From: Pseudomonadota bacterium
GTDB lineage: Bacteria; Desulfobacterota; WTBG01; CAIYCZ01
Reading direction: 5' to 3'
Length of the DNA stretch: 30,811 nt
Assembly (NCBI GenBank): GCA_026388865.1
Contig: JAPLIX010000367.1
Coordinates: 1 to 30,811 of the forward strand
Part shown: positions 2,977 through 29,188 of the stretch, in pieces
Numbering within the stretch: position 1 is the stretch's first letter
Layout of the letters: every line of letters begins with the position of its first letter
Translations under genes and position numbers: made by a program
The notes under the pieces: model-generated
What the model was told of the DNA's origin: nothing
Database searches by the model: none
Seen by the model: only the letters and a program-made list of their open reading frames with translations

Positions 2977-4149
2977 TTACTTTACCCTGATCTCCATCTC
3001 GGTCTTTGCATCTCCCTTTGCTATGTGGGAGGTGAATTTCACCGTGGCCTTCTTGTCCATCTTGATCTGTTTCAGCACATTAGCCACAAAATCTTCGTCC
3101 ATTGCTACCAGCGCTGCCTTGTATCCCTTGTCTGCCTGCAGCATGTCTGCTACCTGTACAAACGGATCTGCCTCGGCGGTTAATACTATACTGCCGTCTG
3201 CCTTGCTGCTGGCCTTGAATGCGGTGTATTTCTTATGTTCACAATATGCAATAATGTCTGCCACATCCTTTGCCGTCTTTACCGTGCCGATCTCACAATC
3301 AAGCTTGGCATCCTTTACCCACATCTTCGGGAATGTCTGCCACAGCTTCAGATATATACCCGTTGCCTTTGCCTTCACATTCAGGTTAAGCTGCAGCCAG
3401 GCAAGAAAATCTACGGCAAAAAATCCAAGAAACGAACCGGGGCCCTGCTCCTCAAGCGTCCGCTTCTGCTTCTTCAATATGTAAAGTACCGGCTCCTGAT
3501 TCCCGATCTCAAGATCAATGAATTTTCTCGCCACTTCAGGAAGCGGAAGATCAGGATTTGCATCACGTGTCCGCAATATTATCTGGCAGGCACAGGCTGC
3601 GCCGTCACGGCATCTGCCCGAAGGCAGTTCTACCAGGATGTCTTCCTTTAACCCTGCCTTCTTTGCCTTTTCAATCAGCTCCCATATATACACATAGGTC
3701 AGATACACTTCCTGCCGGTAGTAATCATGACGGCAGTACGTGCAGTCTGCCGGGCCGTAGGCCGGGTTTGCACACCACTGGACATGGCCTACATGCTCTG
3801 TCGCGGTATTGCGCCTGGTAATATACAGCGCAGGTACTCCGATGAAGCAGTCCTCCACTATCCTTCCAAGGGTTGGAAGGTCTTTTACCTCTTTCAGTCC
3901 AAACTTCGCCATCGCCCCGTCAAAGGACATGTCTGCCAGGGCTGCCCACACATTGCCGTAGTACTTCAGGCCATCCTTCTCGCCCAGAGCCGGCTTAAAT
4001 GTCCGCCAAATATAATATACATGCCCAAACAGTGACTTCAAGGCTTCTACGGTTAAATCCTTTAAGCTCATCTTTAAAAGCTTGCAATGGGCCTCCATAA
4101 ACGGCAGAAACGGGCTCGGCGCTGACTTTGCTTTTGCTTTGCTTGCCAT
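2977..4149 (-). CDS. Hypothetical protein with two tandem V4R/H-NOX-like (ATC-hydrolase-like) domains; Cys-rich first half
   Basis: 390 aa, RBS AAGGAGG. The halves align: GLKYYGNVWAALADMSFDGAMAKFGLKEVKDLPTLGRIVEDCF vs ATGIYLKLWQTFPKMWVKDAKLDCEIGTVKTAKDVADIIAYCE (8/43 identical, ungapped). V4R-like ends GRCRDGAACACQIIL and SHIAKGDAKTEMEI. CDS is solid; fold call is tentative. Confidence 0.7.
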   Translation of the reverse strand: MASKAKAKSAPSPFLPFMEAHCKLLKMSLKDLTVEALKSLFGHVYYIWRTFKPALGEKDGLKYYGNVWAALADMSFDGAMAKFGLKEVKDLPTLGRIVEDCFIGVPALYITRRNTATEHVGHVQWCANPAYGPADCTYCRHDYYRQEVYLTYVYIWELIEKAKKAGLKEDILVELPSGRCRDGAACACQIILRTRDANPDLPLPEVARKFIDLEIGNQEPVLYILKKQKRTLEEQGPGSFLGFFAVDFLAWLQLNLNVKAKATGIYLKLWQTFPKMWVKDAKLDCEIGTVKTAKDVADIIAYCEHKKYTAFKASSKADGSIVLTAEADPFVQVADMLQADKGYKAALVAMDEDFVANVLKQIKMDKKATVKFTSHIAKGDAKTEMEIRVK

Positions 4150-13791: not shown

Positions 13792-13823
13792 CTCAGTGTT
13801 CCCGATGGCTATCGGGACTGTGG
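13792..13823 (+). repeat. 32-bp REP-like palindromic element; second copy inverted at 30141-30172
   Basis: CTCAGTGTTCCCGATGGCTATCGGGACTGTGG; its reverse complement matches 30141-30172 at 30/32 positions. Confidence 0.75.
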
Positions 13824-13849
13824 TTTATTTCGTAGCGAAAGGAGAGTAT

Positions 13850-15313
13850 ATGAAGACATTTAAAACCGTTTCCTGCCTGATGTGTATCTGCGGCCTGCTC
13901 TTTTTCTGCGCCGCGCCCGCTGCTCCGGCAGCTTCCCTCCCCCGCATGTATCCCACCTGCTCCTACCAGGGAAGCTGGAAGGAGATCGGTAAACAGACCG
14001 CCATGCATTACGGCGACACCATCATGTATACCGGCATAGTCTTTAACAACTTTATGAATATCGGAGCGGAGGAAACCCTCGCCTACTATGATGAAATCAA
14101 AGGACGCATTCCTGCAGCCATACAGGAACAGATGGAGGGCCTGGCACAGGGGCTGAATGAATACTGGTCCGTTCCCTATGACACTGCCTGGACGTGGGTG
14201 CTGGTAGCAAACCTCGGCTTTGATATCATGAGCAAGCACACGCTGGACAAGGAAGTCCAGGGCTGCACCGCTTTTGCCCTGCATTCTGACCAGGGGACAT
14301 TTCTCTGCCACAACACCGACAACGCATCCGCCAACGTGGATCTGGGTTCTCTGATTTATTACCAGCCCGACAACGGGGACAATGCCTTCCTGTCCTTCTT
14401 CGCTGCCGCGTTTGTCGGCGCGGCGCTTGCCGTCAATGACAAGGGACTTGCCGTCACCTACAATGTGGGCGGCCGAAATAAAAATCCTGCCGCAGGATTG
14501 ACCGTGCTTTTGAAAACACGCGAGGTGATGGCCACCTGCGGCAGCGTGGCGGAAGCCGTTGAGAGCTTTAAAACATTTCTGGATGCGGGCGGCACCTACG
14601 GCTACGCCACGTCGAATTTCCTGTTTGTAGATTTTAAGGATTCCTCCATGGCCCGGCTGCAGGTCAGCTCGCGTGAAATAAAAGTTACCTACGGACAGGA
14701 GCTGAAACCGGGGGTAACCTATATTGGCTTTACCAATGAGTTTGACGATGACTTCTCCCCGCGGACAGAGGCGGATCTGGCCAAAACTTCGGTTATTTCC
14801 TCGCAGACGCGCTACAAGCGGCTTATGGAACTTCTGCCTGCCTTTGAAAAATATGATCTTGAGACCTGCTGGGAAATACTGACGGACAAATCCGGCGGAG
14901 AGTCCGACAATAACACCATCTGCCGCCGCGGCCAGAGCACCATCACCACCCTGGCAAATATTTTTACCGCAGACACGGCATACTACGCGGTAGGCCCGCC
15001 CTGCGAATATCTGGCACTCTACGGCGCGCCCATGGCCGTGGGCCTTGAGCAGAAGGTACAGCCTTCTATCGGTGGCAGCGTTACGGCACTGGGCAGGCCA
15101 CTGGCCCATGTCCCGGTTGTCCTGGAAAGCACTTCAATGAAAGGGATGACCCTTAAAACCTGCACCGATGGAAACGGCGCGTATCTGTTTAATAACCTGG
15201 AAAGCGATACCTACAGATTACGGGTGAAAAAATTTCCGCACGTGCCCGGAAGAAAAGTTGTCGATTTTCAGAAAGGAACGCAGCAGACTATTGATCTGAA
15301 TCTGCTTTTTTAA
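13850..15313 (+). CDS. Exported C45-family Ntn hydrolase with C-terminal carboxypeptidase-regulatory-like domain
   Basis: Start moved to ATG 13850 (RBS AAAGGAG; signal peptide MKTFKTVSCLMCICGLLFFCAAPAAPA). YQGSWKEIGKQ, nucleophile GCTAF, HNTD, AVNDKGL; tail GSVTALGRPLAHVPV...TDGNGAYLFNNL. Confidence 0.82.
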   Translation: MKTFKTVSCLMCICGLLFFCAAPAAPAASLPRMYPTCSYQGSWKEIGKQTAMHYGDTIMYTGIVFNNFMNIGAEETLAYYDEIKGRIPAAIQEQMEGLAQGLNEYWSVPYDTAWTWVLVANLGFDIMSKHTLDKEVQGCTAFALHSDQGTFLCHNTDNASANVDLGSLIYYQPDNGDNAFLSFFAAAFVGAALAVNDKGLAVTYNVGGRNKNPAAGLTVLLKTREVMATCGSVAEAVESFKTFLDAGGTYGYATSNFLFVDFKDSSMARLQVSSREIKVTYGQELKPGVTYIGFTNEFDDDFSPRTEADLAKTSVISSQTRYKRLMELLPAFEKYDLETCWEILTDKSGGESDNNTICRRGQSTITTLANIFTADTAYYAVGPPCEYLALYGAPMAVGLEQKVQPSIGGSVTALGRPLAHVPVVLESTSMKGMTLKTCTDGNGAYLFNNLESDTYRLRVKKFPHVPGRKVVDFQKGTQQTIDLNLLF

Positions 15314-15441: not shown

Positions 15442-16146
15442 CTAGCGCGCGAAGAACAGGTCATTGACCCGCTCAATCGCGCCGCTTCTGCCAAACAGGA
15501 TGGAGTAGAGTTTGACCGCGGGGTCGTGGTTGATAACGGTCTGATGATAGTTCTCAAAGTCTGCGTCAGCGTTTCTTTTGTTATCATCTGCAACAGAAGC
15601 TGCCGCATCTGCAAGCTCCAGGAATACATCAAGGTATTCATTAAACAGCGCAAGCGCCCTGCTGTCCAGTTCCGGCGGCACCTTTACATAACAATGGGCC
15701 TTTGACATGATATCGTTTATCTTCCCTTGGAGCGTCAGGGGCGCTGCAAAAAGCTCCCGGTACCTGCTCTTTATCTCAAGCAGCCGCTGCTCAACCCTGA
15801 GCCCGTCCCACCGCTCGCTGCGCACGGTCGGGTGAATGTCCACAAGAAACGCCCGCTTCGCTCCCATGAGAATTGTTTCCGAGGAAAAGATGGGGAGATA
15901 GAATTCAGGCCTGAGCCCGATAAAGATCGAGCGGGAGCACCGGGAAGAGACCAGGAAGTTTGTGGTAAGAACCATCACCCGCAGGAATTTATCAGATTCA
16001 TATACTATACCGTCAATTTTGATAATCCCCAGGGCCCGCAGGGGCCGTTCGGGAAACGGGTGCTTCAGGGCAATCTCCCTCAAGCGGTAGCGGCTGGTAA
16101 TCCGGTCAAGAAAAAGGGTATGAATATCTTTTAATTCTTCTGCCAT
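15442..16146 (-). CDS. Ferredoxin-dependent bilin reductase / RCC reductase-like protein
   Basis: Likely start ATG 16146 (MAEELK). Family-like motifs RPEFYLPIFSSE, DIHP, FNEYLDVF, YHQTVINHDPAVKLYSILFG...VNDLFF. Confidence 0.72.
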   Translation of the reverse strand: MAEELKDIHTLFLDRITSRYRLREIALKHPFPERPLRALGIIKIDGIVYESDKFLRVMVLTTNFLVSSRCSRSIFIGLRPEFYLPIFSSETILMGAKRAFLVDIHPTVRSERWDGLRVEQRLLEIKSRYRELFAAPLTLQGKINDIMSKAHCYVKVPPELDSRALALFNEYLDVFLELADAAASVADDNKRNADADFENYHQTVINHDPAVKLYSILFGRSGAIERVNDLFFAR

Positions 16147-16172
16147 GAAAACGGTCCCCCTGTGCAGCAATG

Positions 16173-16796
16173 TTAAGTGTCCTGTGCCTTTGCTATTTCT
16201 TCAACGAGGCGCACGCCCAGGGCAAAGGTCTGCTGTATTTTTTCCGCATACCGCTGTTCGTCGAAGTTATGAATAAATCCCACGTAGAGTCGCTCGATGA
16301 CCTCCACCTCCTCAACCATGAAATGCCCTGACATCACTTCAAAGCAGGGCTCGGCCATATCCGCAAATTCTTCCCGGGCGCTTCCGGTAGCAAGCAGCAG
16401 CGCCTTTTTTTTAAAATTCTGTTTTACCCGTGCATCAGGGATTCCAATAGCGCCTTTAGTTTTGTAAAACATGGGAAAGCGCCGTTCAATGAAAGCTTTC
16501 ATGACAGAGGTAACGGTAAAATCATACACCGGGCAGGCCATGATGTAGCCATCAGCTTCCAGATATTCTTTGAGGATACCGGCCATATCATCCCTTAAGG
16601 GGCATTTCCCGATGGAAAGCTCGTGGTTCCCATAAACACATTTATAACAGCCGCGGCAATAGGTGATTTTATATTTCACTAAATTAAACTGTTTTACCTC
16701 AGCACCTGCGCTCGCAGCACCCTTTAAAACACTTTCCGTAAATTGAGAGCACAGCCCCCTGGTGCGGGGACTTCCCATAAATCCTAAAATCTTCAT
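16173..16796 (-). CDS. Flavodoxin-fold iron-sulfur flavoprotein (Isf / NADPH-dependent FMN reductase family)
   Basis: Start ATG 16796 with RBS AAGGAG; MKILGFMGSPR, CRGCYKC...C, ADGYIMACPVY...MKAFIER. Confidence 0.87.
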   Translation of the reverse strand: MKILGFMGSPRTRGLCSQFTESVLKGAASAGAEVKQFNLVKYKITYCRGCYKCVYGNHELSIGKCPLRDDMAGILKEYLEADGYIMACPVYDFTVTSVMKAFIERRFPMFYKTKGAIGIPDARVKQNFKKKALLLATGSAREEFADMAEPCFEVMSGHFMVEEVEVIERLYVGFIHNFDEQRYAEKIQQTFALGVRLVEEIAKAQDT

Positions 16797-17001
16797 GGAC
16801 AGGTACTCCTTGGGAAATGAATAAATTATACCGAGGCTATAATGCCTTGATAATTTATAAAAGAGTATATGAGGATAAAGAAGGTGTGTCAATTTTTATG
16901 AGAGAGATGATATATTTTCCGGGCAAGCTTTTTTATCAACAGTATGTTTCTTCAGATATGAATCATTGTCGCATCTCTACCGGCTTTTTTGTTCATTCTG
17001 C

Positions 17002-17030
17002 TTGCATCAACGGCTTTTAACCTCTATACT
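17002..17030 (+). promoter_or_regulatory. Candidate sigma70 promoter for the AOR gene
   Basis: TTGCAT-N17-TATACT, 64 nt upstream of ATG 17095 (RBS CAGGAG). Confidence 0.55.
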
Positions 17031-17094
17031 TTTTAAATATTTTCAAGCAAACGCAGGCAGCAGAAGCAAAGCATTTTTTTAACAGGAGAAACCT

Positions 17095-19077
17095 ATGCAA
17101 AAACAGGCTGCGGACCAGAAAAATATTTTTGGATGGAGGGGAAAAATCCTGCGGGTTGATCTCTCACAGGCAAAAATATGGGATGAAGAGCTTTCCCGCG
17201 CATACATGGACGGTTATATCGGAGGAGCAGGCATCAATGCCCGGCTGCTCTATGATCTTATGCGCACCAATCCCCAGGCAGATGCCCTGTCACCGGAAAA
17301 TCCGCTCATTTTCGGCTGCGGGCCGCTGGTGGGCACCACGTTTCCGTGCGCAAGCCGCTTTACCGTAACCGGCAAAAGCCCGCTTACCGGGATCTTTGGT
17401 GACACCAATGCCGGCGGATGGTTTCCGGTACGGCTCAAGCAGGCAGGCTATGACCACATTGTTATCCAGGGAAAAGCCGGCAGGCCGGCAGCGCTTCTTA
17501 TTGAACCGGGTTTGCAGCCGCAGCTTGTCGATGCAGCTGATATATGGGGCCTTGATATTTTTGATACCGATAAAAAGCTCCATGAAAAATATGGTGACTG
17601 CGAAACAGCCCGGATCGGGCCGGCCGGGGAAAACCTGGTGCGGTTTGCAAGTATTTTATCAGGCACCAAACGGACCAGCTCCAACGGGCGCACCGGCATG
17701 GGCTGCGTCATGGGCTCAAAAAACCTGAAGGCCATTATTATAAAAGTTAAGAAGGGCGTCGGCATGGTGCCGGTTGCCGATGAACAGGCGGTAGAAAAGA
17801 TTGCAAAACATTATCGGGACGTCTGGCTCAAAGGCCCGGGAACCTCGCTTAAACGGCAGTACGGCACCCTGACGAATTTTTCTCAGATAGCCGAACACAC
17901 CCGCATCAAAAATGAACAGGAGCCTTTGACCGCTGAGCAGATTGATGCCTATGATCTGGATCTTTTTGTAAACAATTTTAAAACCGGACAAACCGCCTGC
18001 TATCGCTGCCCGGTGGCCTGCTCCCAGAAATGGGAAATAAAAGAAGGCCCCTATCAGGGGGAGAAAGGTGACAAGGTTGAATACGGGCACCTGCTGAATC
18101 TGGGGCCGAATCTGGGGATTTTTGATTTCGCGACCATGCTGCACCTTGCGGATTTGAGCAACCGGCTGGGCATGGACTGTATCCAGTTCGGCTATAATAT
18201 GGCCATTGCCATGGAGTGCTTCCAGCGCGGCATCTTAAGCAGCGAGGCAACCGGCGGCATTGAACTGAACTGGGGCAACAGCCAGACCGTGGAAACACTG
18301 ATGCGAAAAACCGCCTTTCGCGAGGGCTTCGGCAATCTGCTTGCGGAAAATGCCCCGACCATGGCCTCACGCATCGGACCGGATGCCGAGCAGTACGGCT
18401 CGCATACCAAGGGCATGTCCTTTCCCTTCAGCTGCACCTATGCGCTGCCCATGAGCCTGGCCTCGTCAGTGGCGACACGGGGAGGCGACCACCTGAAGGG
18501 CCATCCGTTTGCAGCCATAATCGGGCACCAGGAAATGCTGGAAAAAATGTTCGGCAAAGACGTTCCCCCTGAAGCAAGCGATCACACCAGCCCAATTGCC
18601 AAGGGCAGGGTTGTCTGGTGGCAGGAAAACTACAAGATGATTATGGACTGCCTTGGCATCTGCTTTCTTCCCATCATTAACTCCAACGTGTGGAGCGACC
18701 CCCTGATTATGATTAAGGAGATGGCCGAGATGTATCAGACCATAACCGGCCGGGACGCCTCCGGGCTGTTTACCGCGGCTGAGCGGGCCTACCAGATTGA
18801 GCGCTGCTTCAACACGCTGCAGGGCATCACACGGAAAGACGACACGAGAAAGGGAACCCTGCGGGGAGAGAAAAATCCCATCGATCTTCCGGGCATGCTC
18901 GATGAATATTATGAATACCGCGGCTGCTCTTCGGACGGGCTGCCGACACGCAAGCGGCTGCAGGAAATAGGGATGGCAGACGTGGCCGAAGAAATGGCAC
19001 GGAATAAAAAGCTTTCCTCAGAGGAGCGACCGGCTATAGCCGAGCTGCTACAGGATTCTACTGATGTGAGGGGGTAG
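17095..19077 (+). CDS. aor: Aldehyde:ferredoxin oxidoreductase family protein (W/Mo-bis-pterin, [4Fe-4S])
   Basis: 660 aa; GKILRVDL, KSPLTG, IGPAGENLV, GRTGMGCVMGSKNLKAI, CYRCPVAC, LGMDCI, RGGDH, EYYEYRG. Confidence 0.92.
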   Translation: MQKQAADQKNIFGWRGKILRVDLSQAKIWDEELSRAYMDGYIGGAGINARLLYDLMRTNPQADALSPENPLIFGCGPLVGTTFPCASRFTVTGKSPLTGIFGDTNAGGWFPVRLKQAGYDHIVIQGKAGRPAALLIEPGLQPQLVDAADIWGLDIFDTDKKLHEKYGDCETARIGPAGENLVRFASILSGTKRTSSNGRTGMGCVMGSKNLKAIIIKVKKGVGMVPVADEQAVEKIAKHYRDVWLKGPGTSLKRQYGTLTNFSQIAEHTRIKNEQEPLTAEQIDAYDLDLFVNNFKTGQTACYRCPVACSQKWEIKEGPYQGEKGDKVEYGHLLNLGPNLGIFDFATMLHLADLSNRLGMDCIQFGYNMAIAMECFQRGILSSEATGGIELNWGNSQTVETLMRKTAFREGFGNLLAENAPTMASRIGPDAEQYGSHTKGMSFPFSCTYALPMSLASSVATRGGDHLKGHPFAAIIGHQEMLEKMFGKDVPPEASDHTSPIAKGRVVWWQENYKMIMDCLGICFLPIINSNVWSDPLIMIKEMAEMYQTITGRDASGLFTAAERAYQIERCFNTLQGITRKDDTRKGTLRGEKNPIDLPGMLDEYYEYRGCSSDGLPTRKRLQEIGMADVAEEMARNKKLSSEERPAIAELLQDSTDVRG

Positions 19078-28615: not shown

Positions 28616-29188
28616 CTATTTACCCTTGAGCGCTTCCTTGATTTTAAGCCCGAGCTGCCGTGCCTGTTCCATGAATTCCGGCTTCTCCCGGACATCGTCC
28701 ATACCCGCAATGGCCCCGAGCTTGCCCACGACCTTCATCTCGCTGTAACCAAGAAACTTCTCCATGACTTCCAATGTGTGCTCAATCCCGTGACCTGCCA
28801 CGGCGCCCACCACGGCGCCGGGTTTTCCCGCGAGGGGTTTCCTGCCGTGCATGGGATTTTCCGATTCTTTGCCGATCCCCATGTAGCCAAGGGCAATGCT
28901 CCTATCCATCATGCTCTTCATCAGCCCTGAAACCTCGCCGTAGTAGCAGGGCGAGCCGAGGACGATGGCTTCGGCGTCAAGCATCTTCTTATAGAGCATC
29001 GTGGTCATCCCGTCCTGCTGCCAGCAGTTCCCCTCCACCACGCAGCGCATGCACCCCGTGGAGTAACCGGGGTTTATATCTATGAGCCATATAAGCTCTG
29101 ATTCGCCTCCGGTCGCTTTCAGGACTTCTTCAATGAGGCCGCCGGTATTTCCCTCTTTCCTTCCGCTGCCGCAGATTCCCAGTATCAT
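28616..29188 (-). CDS. Flavodoxin-fold (Isf-like) flavoprotein with first cluster Cys replaced by Ser
   Basis: 190 aa; ILGICGSGRKEGNT, YSTGCMRC...C, AEAIVLGSPCYYG..SGLMKSMMDR; RBS AAGGAG. Confidence 0.85.
   Translation of the reverse strand: MILGICGSGRKEGNTGGLIEEVLKATGGESELIWLIDINPGYSTGCMRCVVEGNCWQQDGMTTMLYKKMLDAEAIVLGSPCYYGEVSGLMKSMMDRSIALGYMGIGKESENPMHGRKPLAGKPGAVVGAVAGHGIEHTLEVMEKFLGYSEMKVVGKLGAIAGMDDVREKPEFMEQARQLGLKIKEALKGK

Follow-up and report, generated by a model that had tools for sequence, protein, structure and literature searches.

The window, meaning the whole stretch of 30,811 nucleotides under analysis, belongs to an uncultured, oxygen-avoiding bacterium of freshwater or sediment, from a class-level lineage of Thermodesulfobacteriota of lakes and sediments. 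Three of its genes are of concern here. The first (15445..16146, reverse strand) encodes a protein of 234 amino acids with the fold of the ferredoxin-dependent bilin reductases (FDBRs), as judged by its Pfam family (PF05996), its AlphaFold2 model, Foldseek, and its invariant residues. Upstream on the same strand (16176..16796) is the gene for an iron-sulfur-motif flavoprotein of 207 amino acids, with an FMN_red/WrbA-type fold and akin to Isf and FLR. The third gene (17095..19077, forward strand) encodes a tungsten-type aldehyde:ferredoxin oxidoreductase (AOR family) of 660 amino acids. An earlier note on this DNA had the AOR gene read oppositely from a common intergenic region, and so it is: the layout of open reading frames and a promoter scan define a divergent gap of 298 bp (16797..17094) between it and the flavoprotein gene. 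The AOR is a full-length member of its family, with domains AFOR_N (236 bits) and AFOR_C (273 bits), and its nearest matches among solved chains (E 1e-74 to 1e-78) are AORs too, namely 9mqx, 9g7j, and 1aor.

The open reading frame of the FDBR-like gene runs from 15442 to 16170 on the reverse strand, with its stop codon at 15442-15444. Translation probably begins with the ATG at 16146, giving a product of the same length, 234 amino acids, as nearly all of its homologues. The motifs that the earlier note had called PcyA/PebA/RCCR-type are all present, reading RPEFYLPIFSSE, DIHP, FNEYLDVF, and Y..TVINHDPAVKLYSILFG...LFF. Of the two family models the note had named as checks, Fe_bilin_red (PF05996) matches with 45 bits (E 1.3e-11, residues 86-239), above its gathering cut-off of 31 bits, and RCC_reductase (PF06405) gives no match at E<=0.1. 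The structural match on which the note had staked its reading was found. The AlphaFold2 model (pLDDT 94.4, pTM 0.92) resembles PcyA, PebB, PebA, and HY2 (2dke, 6qx6, 2x9o, 6kme) with TM 0.75-0.83 and a Foldseek probability of 1.00, and the predicted fold is the alpha/beta/alpha sandwich of PcyA, PebS, and HY2. The best 45 PDB matches are FDBRs or RCCR, except for two entries of the Ycf2/Orf2971-FtsHi complex, and HemF ranks below the FDBR and RCCR matches. One of the two Ycf2/Orf2971-FtsHi entries is listed as a PcyA chain by sequence search. Judged by its model, the protein is a genuine relative of the FDBR fold and the resemblance is not by chance.

Might it also be an enzyme? Glu90, Asp103, His207-Asp208-Pro209, and three arginines (Arg37, Arg56, and Arg226) are invariant across 39 homologues, at identities down to 36%. 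In a HMMER alignment to PDB sequences, Glu90 aligns with Asp105 of PebS and PcyA, a mapping that comes from a low-scoring segment (4.2 bits) and is backed by the conserved D/E-L-P-x-F motif. Asp105 of PebS is the residue changed in the D105N chain of 2x9i. His207-Asp208-Pro209 aligns with E-L-D206-P of PebS, so that Asp208 corresponds to PebS Asp206 and HY2 Asp256, the aspartate of the C-terminal D-P motif that has a role in A-ring reduction. Both catalytic positions are acidic, and from its sequence the protein appears to carry a plausible catalytic set. Glutamate at the position of Asp105 is also the state of pre-1, and pre-1 enzymes are active and reduce biliverdin (PMC13446030). The residues at the two positions differ between orthogroups, as they do among FDBRs of differing regiospecificity; in OG5 paralogues position 90 is F or R, and position 208 is either Glu or a gap. 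The invariant arginines are specific to the orthogroup of the window's gene and would suit propionate-type carboxylates.

With the branch that holds PebB, HY2, PebA, and PebS the protein shares Pfam family and fold. The TM of its model is 0.78-0.83 to 6qx6, 2x9o, and 6kme and 0.62-0.64 to PebS (2vck), and by E-value the profile of its family is nearer to HY2 (6kmd, 3e-9) and PebB (4e-8) than to PcyA (4e-3). However, it is only 13-18% identical to the proteins of that branch, has Glu in place of Asp at the 105 position, comes without heme oxygenase, phycobiliprotein, or phytochrome, occurs in multiple copies in anaerobes, and has a flavoprotein for a partner where they have a plant-type ferredoxin. 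The NCBIfam equivalogs for PcyA, PebA, and PebB give it 18-30 bits, against cut-offs of 263-327 (at best 29.6 bits, with the PebB model NF009722, cut-off 283), and another ten paralogues do not exceed 91 bits, where the cut-offs are 206-327. The pre-PcyA proteins of heterotrophic bacteria (pre-1 to pre-3) are likewise FDBR homologues in non-phototrophs. Besides its Glu at the Asp105 position, pre-1 is without His88 and Glu76 (Rockwell 2023, PMC10151467; Frascogna 2026, PMC13446030). Pre-1 and pre-3 share their gene clusters with a heme oxygenase, an Fe-S protein, a pair of V4R proteins, and a BBAG globin, and pre-2 with a B12-binding protein and a globin (PMC10151467; PMC13446030). Neither set is seen among the neighbours of 87 paralogues of the lineage, and PF00502 and PF01126 have no match in the host genome. 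An open reading frame at 2977-4149, proposed to be V4R-like, matches nothing in Pfam at E<=1e-3.

The flavoprotein gene ends with a stop codon at 16173-16175, its 207 codons counted from an ATG that follows an AAGGAG site. Its product scores 63 bits with FMN_red (PF03358). With Isf and FLR it has in common the fold and the N-terminal CxxCxxC...C motif (residues 47-65), which the earlier note had rightly seen as intact: Cys47/50/53/65 form CxxCxxC-x11-C, kept in six of six aligned homologues adjacent to FDBR genes. In canonical Isf the spacing to the fourth cysteine is x4-7, shorter than the x11 found here, and a sequence comparison with solved structures at E<=1e-3 gave no Isf chain for the flavoprotein. 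Its nearest match among solved chains is the flavone reductase FLR (7d38), in an alignment that spans residues 1-119 and with them the Cys motif; the C-terminal substrate tail of FLR is absent. FLR is itself an ene-reductase (PMC7862272), and so the flavoprotein might have a catalytic activity of its own.

The flavoprotein gene lies directly before the FDBR-like gene, as the earlier note said, but the spacer between them is 26 nt (16147..16172, reverse strand) rather than 27. Since it contains a ribosome-binding site, GGGGGA, 8 nt before the ATG, the FDBR-like gene would be translated from the mRNA of the flavoprotein. A consensus scan found no promoter-like or terminator-like site in the spacer. 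It did find two sigma-70-like promoters facing the pair (16825..16892, reverse strand), pattern matches only, namely TTGACA-17-TATACT (11/12) and TTATCA-17-TATAAT (10/12); both sit upstream of the flavoprotein, and there is none upstream of the FDBR-like gene alone. The two genes are co-oriented and almost certainly co-transcribed as one operon. Metatranscriptome contigs cover parts of all three genes, which is weak evidence.

The FDBR-like gene belongs to a lineage-specific radiation that numbers about 17 paralogues in its genome. The radiation is the main point here, and it was absent from the earlier note. The host genome (3.7 Mb, 91% complete) contains 15 FDBR genes at the level of Pfam and 17 by iterated HMM, relatives from four of the class's families carry 6-22 per genome, and there are none in 194 further genomes of the phylum. 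AOR genes number about 25 in the host and 25-31 per genome in most relatives, and FMN_red genes about 20 per genome. Heme oxygenase (PF01126) is found in none of the 41 genomes of the class sample, host included, and the HutW model reaches 205 bits in the genome, under its cut-off of 400. PHY and phycobiliprotein/BBAG (PF00502) have no match anywhere in the host genome, nor was a heme-copper oxidase found there. What the earlier note had said of the window, that it holds no heme oxygenase, phytochrome, or phycobiliprotein gene, holds for the whole genome. To judge by the PF01126 search, the host, like 40 relatives, is without an oxygen-dependent source of biliverdin. A genome with some 17 FDBR genes would then be unable to make their usual substrate, and the family in this lineage therefore probably does unknown chemistry.

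I propose that the FDBR-like protein is a radical reductase, fed by a flavoprotein or a ferredoxin, and that its substrate is not self-made biliverdin, because the lineage is without heme oxygenase, but probably an imported compound of the tetrapyrrole type. I put the probability of this at roughly 45%. Its catalysis, electron path, and substrate class I infer with known FDBRs as the model. The protein would be free of cofactors, its sandwich holding a large conjugated, carboxylate-bearing substrate, and a C=C bond would be reduced in two steps, each of one electron and one proton, with Glu90 and Asp208 as proton relays. In the window's genus the electrons would be supplied by the co-transcribed, predicted FMN flavoprotein with its putative [4Fe-4S] motif; for sister paralogues the donor may be an adjacent small 2x[4Fe-4S] ferredoxin or a ferredoxin domain fused to the reductase. 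As substrate, a tetrapyrrole-type compound that is imported or arises independently of oxygen is the most likely; bilins, chlorophyll catabolites, and porphyrinogen-like molecules are examples.

Redox carriers recur beside the FDBR genes. The 381 neighbours of 87 FDBR genes in five genomes include 10 small ferredoxins, 9 GGR/HI0933-type flavoproteins, 7 PNPOx-like proteins, and 5 FMN_red proteins. The small ferredoxins are of the 2x[4Fe-4S] kind, and Fer4::FDBR fusions occur at L022:4207-5199 and in OG4 of G006 and G009. Isf-like flavoproteins directly adjoin OG0 FDBR genes in G001, G017, G004, and G008, the last three being other genera in which the adjacent protein belongs to the subfamily of the window's flavoprotein. 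The FDBR gene of C169 adjoins an FMN_red paralogue that is more distant, with 32% identity to the window's flavoprotein. Adjacency of FMN_red and FDBR genes is about 10 times what about 20 FMN_red genes per genome would lead one to expect. Neither flavoprotein nor AOR, however, is found at 8 of about 12 FDBR orthologue loci, and most flavoprotein orthologues are located elsewhere in their genomes. With neighbourhoods so variable, the flavoprotein cannot be an obligatory partner.

The earlier note had suggested that all three genes form one closed pathway: AOR supplies low-potential electrons, which pass through the Isf-like flavoprotein to the FDBR-like reductase. In such a scheme the AOR would oxidise an aldehyde, possibly a formyl group of the same substrate (compare the formyl-oxobilin chlorophyll catabolites). 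The FDBR fold, the flavoprotein operon, and the lack of an oxygen-dependent source of biliverdin have survived from that account. The fixed trio has not, for flavoprotein, FDBR, and the window's AOR are kept together only in the same genus, where an IS-like insert separates flavoprotein and AOR. That retention still speaks for a closed pathway, as does the divergent layout with its common 298-bp control region. So do the places where the orthologous flavoprotein adjoins AORs: in G028, G032, and G038 (family f4) it lies beside a protein of the Coprogen_oxidas fold, a pair of AORs, and a Fer4::DUF169 protein, and in G018 beside an AOR, flavoprotein/AOR arrangements being of three types in three families. 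AORs of other clades also adjoin FDBR genes (in L015, L022/L023, L063, and L078). But the FDBR-adjacent AORs are of different clades, scoring 55-170 bits against the window's AOR, and most orthologue loci have no AOR at all. In five genomes 13 FDBR-AOR pairs within 10 kb were observed against about 8 expected by density (about 1.6-fold), and since AOR and FMN_red genes are also expanded, the adjacency is near chance overall. The linkage that the note had expected to be conserved does recur in other genera for flavoprotein and FDBR, and is confined to the same genus for the trio with the window's AOR. The AOR is a neighbour of uncertain functional link, at most a loosely coupled partner, and I consider the closed pathway unlikely.

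About equally doubtful is the idea that the radiation has left tetrapyrroles altogether, and that these proteins are cofactor-free ene-reductases, driven by ferredoxin or flavoprotein, for other conjugated hydrophobic compounds (polyenes, polyphenols, quinone-like molecules, humic-derived compounds) in a broad reductive catabolic repertoire. So many FDBR, AOR, and FMN_red genes in 3.7 Mb would suit such a repertoire, as would the missing heme oxygenase, BBAG, and phytochrome and the flavone-reducing activity of FLR, the solved protein nearest to the flavoprotein. Neighbours of the SDR, FAD_binding_4/Fer4_8/CCG, thiolase, and GGR types, and the DUF1302/DUF1329/BNR envelope genes, favour it too. 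An SCP2-like small protein near FDBR genes is a lead only. The SCP2-like, DUF1302/DUF1329/BNR, SDR, and FAD_binding_4/CCG neighbours suggest substrates that are hydrophobic or of a generic redox kind and do not single out tetrapyrroles. Against all this, the solved or characterised proteins of the fold (FDBR, RCCR, HemF) all bind or act on a tetrapyrrole, the canonical acidic pair is retained, and the orthogroup's own arginines would suit propionates. The Coprogen_oxidas-fold neighbour in f4 and a B12-radical-SAM gene that follows one paralogue pair also indicate tetrapyrroles, which on this analogy are the most likely class of substrate.

It is very unlikely that the FDBR-like protein merely binds a tetrapyrrole or pigment, as carrier, chaperone, or sensor, keeping the fold alone. 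Some paralogues (OG5) have lost the acidic residues, and a few have lipoprotein or membrane-anchor N-termini that put them beyond the reach of a cytoplasmic ferredoxin. Against it stand Glu90, Asp103, His207, and Asp208, invariant in 39 sequences of the orthogroup, the translational linkage to a redox protein, and the ferredoxin domains fused to sister paralogues. An ordinary biliverdin reductase that makes the chromophore of a photoreceptor or globin-type bilin-binding protein, in the manner of PcyA and pre-PcyA, has family, fold, and the biliverdin-reducing pre-1 enzymes in its favour, and is scarcely credible in view of the equivalog scores, the lack of heme oxygenase in 41 genomes and of PHY, phycobiliprotein, BBAG, and heme-copper oxidase in the host genome, and 6-22 paralogues per genome, unlike any chromophore pathway.

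If the FDBR-like protein is a reductase of imported tetrapyrroles, then the whole set of FDBR/CPO-fold proteins, 6-22 per genome and each with its own ferredoxin or flavoprotein, might break down imported bilins and chlorophyll catabolites reductively, step by step and without oxygen, or use them as an electron sink, with partner AORs handling their formyl or carboxyl groups. I offer this tentatively and think it rather unlikely as it stands. Were it true, the set would represent a previously unknown anaerobic fate for a very large flux of tetrapyrrole pigment. Anaerobic reduction of an exogenous bilin, with a flavodoxin-like partner encoded adjacent, is the business of the bilirubin reductase BilR/BilS in gut Firmicutes. 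BilR, a flavoprotein of the Old Yellow Enzyme type, does not have the FDBR fold, and no homology is implied.

RCCR has the same fold and stands directly below the FDBRs in the Foldseek ranking. A related fusion protein scores 19.8 bits with RCC_reductase, under the cut-off of 24.9. The profile of the FDBR-like family also reaches, as a distant match (E 2e-9), a 50%-identity cluster with proteins of Ca. Schekmanbacteria, whose FDBR/RCCR-like group was placed in the RCCR outgroup by Rockwell 2023 (PMC10151467).

The open reading frame at 15442-16170 on the minus strand encodes a real ferredoxin-dependent bilin reductase (FDBR)-fold protein. Its likely start is the ATG at 16146, preceded by a GGGGGA ribosome-binding site 8 nt upstream, and the resulting product of 234 amino acids has the length of nearly all homologues. 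The protein scores 45 bits against Pfam Fe_bilin_red (cut-off 31), and a profile built from 39 homologues matches the sequences of solved HY2 (E = 3e-9) and PebB (4e-8), as well as those of PebA, PebS, and PcyA. The AlphaFold2 model (pLDDT 94.4, pTM 0.92) was compared to known structures by Foldseek, which ranked PcyA, PebB (TM 0.83), PebA, and HY2 best, RCCR next, and then the coproporphyrinogen oxidase HemF. All of this bears out the earlier note, which had recognized motifs of the PcyA/PebA/RCCR type. The closest characterised proteins are FDBRs of the PebB/HY2/PebA type, and the NCBIfam equivalogs for PcyA, PebA, and PebB give only 18-30 bits (cut-offs 263-327). The protein thus belongs to a known kind of enzyme, as a new and uncharacterised form of it.

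Residues were mapped by HMMER alignments to PDB sequences, with Asp105 located through the PebS D105N mutant chain. PebS Asp105 aligns with Glu90, invariant in the family, over a low-scoring segment (4.2 bits) that a conserved L-P-x-F motif anchors, and PebS Asp206 (within E-L-D-P) aligns with the invariant Asp208 (within H-D-P-A). Asp103, considered as the equivalent of PcyA Asp105, is ruled out by the D105N chain alignment, which points to Glu90. The pre-1 enzymes, which reduce biliverdin, also have Glu at the Asp105 position (PMC13446030). Given the alignments and the pre-1 precedent, Glu90 and Asp208 would make a plausible pair of proton donors.

Genomes with known FDBRs have one to three such genes; they belong to phototrophs, to phages that infect phototrophs, and to a small number of heterotrophs in which heme oxygenase is present too. 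In contrast, 31 of the 41 genomes of the window's class, all of them in families f1, f2, f4, and f5, have 6-22 Fe_bilin_red matches each, in anaerobes without heme oxygenase, and here FDBRs come with fused ferredoxins and flavoprotein partners. The window's own genome (3.67 Mb, 91% complete) has 15 matches, 12 of them above cut-off. With an iterated HMM the count is 17, including two outside Pfam Fe_bilin_red (one a Coprogen_oxidas-fold protein, one without a Pfam match), a slight drift of the HMM. A scan of genome contigs with the single protein gave only 4 loci. There is no Fe_bilin_red match in 8 genomes of family f3. When the phylum was sampled evenly (201 genomes), matches occurred only in the window's own order, and the 194 genomes from 83 other families had none.

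In five genomes, the 87 family members fall into 26 blast clusters. Sixteen of the clusters have at least two members, and most of these 16 are common to several families, which argues that the expansion is older than the families that share them. Position 90 is occupied, according to orthogroup, by D, E, N, T, Y, or F, and position 208 is Asp in 58 of 77, variation that resembles the differences among known FDBRs of different regiospecificity. The window's orthogroup is rare in public data, with only 22 clusters at E<=1e-30 among 1.84 billion representatives. A protein cluster from Ca. Schekmanbacteria is a distant match; Rockwell et al. (PMC10151467) assigned this group to the outgroup formed by RCCR. 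The organism's ribosomal protein L2 matches only MAGs of Thermodesulfobacteriota or Deltaproteobacteria, and the window's DNA is present in metagenomes from freshwater, lakes, and sediment. No description of this radiation was found in the literature, and a paper on benzene-degrading Desulfobacterota proved unrelated to it.

Then there is the matter of the substrate. Heme oxygenase (PF01126) is found in none of the 41 genomes of the class, and the window's genome has no match to phycobiliprotein/BBAG or PHY, no DsrA, and no heme-copper oxidase. A candidate anaerobic heme opener of the ChuW/HutW type in the window's genome was rejected, the only match being HemN-like and below cut-off. The closest conceptual parallel is with the pre-PcyA enzymes, FDBRs of non-phototrophs, though these are defined by clusters with heme oxygenase, an Fe-S protein, V4R proteins, and BBAG globins, and such clusters are absent here. 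A link through V4R was rejected as well, since the proposed V4R-like protein (2977-4149) has no Pfam match. As substrate I favor a compound of tetrapyrrole type, one not produced by the cell through heme oxygenase.

There are two readings: these organisms handle linear tetrapyrroles anaerobically, or the radical reductase chemistry of FDBRs, which needs no cofactor, has been turned to new substrates. To my knowledge, next to nothing is known about the degradation of chlorophyll catabolites and bilins in anoxic sediments. Each has implications for how bilin biosynthesis arose, an origin that recent work traces to non-photosynthetic bacteria (PMC10151467).

The flavoprotein gene (16176-16796, minus strand, 207 amino acids) ends 26 nt upstream of the FDBR-like gene, and the gene for aldehyde:ferredoxin oxidoreductase (AOR; 17095-19077, plus strand, 660 amino acids) runs in the opposite direction across a 298-bp spacer. 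Pattern matches place two sigma-70-like promoters in the spacer, pointing towards the flavoprotein gene, and a sequence scan found neither promoter nor terminator between that gene and the FDBR-like gene, a layout from which I infer that the two form one operon. In metatranscriptomes of lake water and sediment, contigs match 15499-15822 of the FDBR-like gene (about 98% identity), 16314-16442 of the flavoprotein gene (95%), and much of the AOR gene. This is weak evidence for expression of all three, because the short pieces derive from related strains and may reflect carry-over of DNA. Convergent with the FDBR-like gene lies one for a secreted C45/AAT-family peptidase-like protein with a CarboxypepD_reg domain (13796-15313, plus strand), a neighbor retained within the genus only.

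The flavoprotein is of the FMN_red/WrbA type (63 bits in Pfam). Among solved structures, the flavone ene-reductase FLR is closest to it, in an alignment that spans residues 1-119 and takes in the Cys motif, and Cys47, Cys50, Cys53, and Cys65 are kept in all six aligned homologues that adjoin FDBR genes. The earlier label, Isf-like, seems a fair description, but the spacing to the fourth Cys is longer than in Isf, and the Fe-S cluster is putative. The window contains a second FMN_red flavoprotein gene (28616-29188, minus strand), in which the first Cys of the motif is replaced by Ser.

Do the flavoprotein and the FDBR-like protein constitute a linked pair, as had been supposed? Orthologues of the latter (59-84% identity) occur in 10 relatives, and the flavoprotein is directly upstream only within the genus, in two occurrences, one a degraded and interrupted copy. 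In G017, a relative, the upstream gene is a flavoprotein paralogue, 47% identical, and 8 other orthologue loci have neither flavoprotein nor AOR. Of the 14 relatives with true orthologues of the flavoprotein (65-79% identity), most have them at unrelated loci, so that the two genes do not make up a fixed system. What survives of the supposition is an association at the level of the protein family, which is not random. Flavoproteins of the same subfamily directly adjoin FDBR genes of the same orthogroup in G004, G008 (on both sides), and G017, and more distant FMN_red paralogues adjoin FDBR paralogues of the type on contig C169 in the window's genome and in G001, of the same genus. With about 20 FMN_red genes in the window's genome, the adjacency expected by chance is about 1% per FDBR gene. 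In three f4 genomes, the orthologous flavoprotein adjoins a 255-amino acid Coprogen_oxidas-fold protein (69 bits), two AORs, and a Fer4::DUF169 protein; the first of these neighbors has the same tetrapyrrole-binding superfold as FDBR.

The case for AOR as a partner is possible but unproven, since the excess of FDBR-AOR proximity is weak, the AORs belong to different clades, and independent cases of flavoprotein-AOR proximity are few. AOR genes have multiplied strikingly as well: AFOR_N matches number 25 in the window's genome, 31 in G001, 29 in G030, 14 in G006, and 7 in G009. In the five related genomes, an AOR lies no more than 10 kb from 13 FDBR genes, against about 8 predicted from gene densities, and the AORs that adjoin FDBR genes are of different clades. 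On the other side, an AOR lies within a few genes of a flavoprotein orthologue in three types of arrangement (genus g1, family f4, and G018), which, few as the independent cases are, is more than I think chance would give.

The earlier note had joined all three proteins into an anaerobic reduction module; its observation is confirmed and its interpretation supported in part. New here are the counts of FDBRs across the genome and the phylum, the finding that the class lacks heme oxygenase, the mapping of residues, the association of the flavoprotein with a protein of coproporphyrinogen oxidase (CPO) fold, and the parallel expansions of AOR and FMN_red, which weaken arguments from adjacency.

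I propose that the 234-amino acid protein would be an enzyme that receives electrons from its flavoprotein. This reading comes mainly from its paralogues, which are repeatedly paired with one-electron carriers. Some have a fused N-terminal 2x[4Fe-4S] ferredoxin domain (L022:4207-5199, and orthogroup OG4 of G006 and G009), and others adjoin small ferredoxins or flavoproteins of GGR/HI0933 type or PNPOx-like. One module (flavoprotein, FDBR, FDBR, a 138-amino acid orphan, ferredoxin) is present in four of five genomes and, without the orphan, in the fifth. Two more are conserved: TetR, FDBR, FDBR, SDR, FAD_binding_4, Fer4_8, CCG, PNPOx; and FDBR, orphan, ferredoxins, FDBR, ferredoxin, B12-radical-SAM enzyme. 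Known FDBRs act by sequential transfer of electrons and protons, and the repeated pairing fits that mechanism. A 569-amino acid neighbor in G030 and G034, taken for a FAD_binding_4 protein, is instead a YgiQ-type radical SAM protein.

Several smaller observations concern the same loci. AOR genes of the window's genome include those at C369, C160, and C184 besides 17095-19077; the one downstream of three FDBR genes at L022:6829-8780, on a metagenome contig, was called in four pieces, and that on the related contig L023 in two. In G001, an insert of about 6 kb, including a pair of genes (474 and 224 amino acids) resembling an insertion sequence, parts flavoprotein from AOR, and there is a second, degraded flavoprotein-FDBR-peptidase block, its FDBR gene split into 168 and 102 amino acids; the loci concerned are L032:9431-15238 and L042:1621-7619.

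Short HemF-fold proteins (250-270 amino acids) occur at L019:2955-3707 (C130 of the window's genome), L092:6696-7463, L094:5147-5959, and L095:1145-1945, in hosts without heme-copper oxidase; in family f4 they lie between genes for the orthologous Isf-like flavoprotein and AOR. Near genes for FDBRs, CPO-fold proteins, and AORs, DUF169 (COG2043) proteins turn up repeatedly (L092:9742-10614, L094:2041-2913, L013:13157-13843, L025:9546-11363), some with a fused N-terminal ferredoxin domain, parallel to the Fer4::FDBR fusions. In each of the five genomes, a conserved orphan of 135-174 amino acids comes after an FDBR paralogue, within one or the other of two modules (L010:1314-1730 and L017:1194-1646, with orthologues in G001, G006, G009, and G030); it has no Pfam match, and a protein atlas suggests, weakly, that it is SCP2-like (score 0.92).

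Some FDBR-fold paralogues (L047:4198-5097 in G001, L076:1618-2520 in G006) begin with a lipoprotein-type signal peptide or membrane anchor; these may function beyond the cytoplasm, or do no more than bind a ligand. Finally, outer-membrane-type DUF1302/DUF1329 proteins and BNR/Ycf48-like proteins adjoin several FDBR paralogues (L077:2677-5705, L079, L081, L083, L051:2883-3941, L073:9242-11869), which hints at uptake of a hydrophobic compound.
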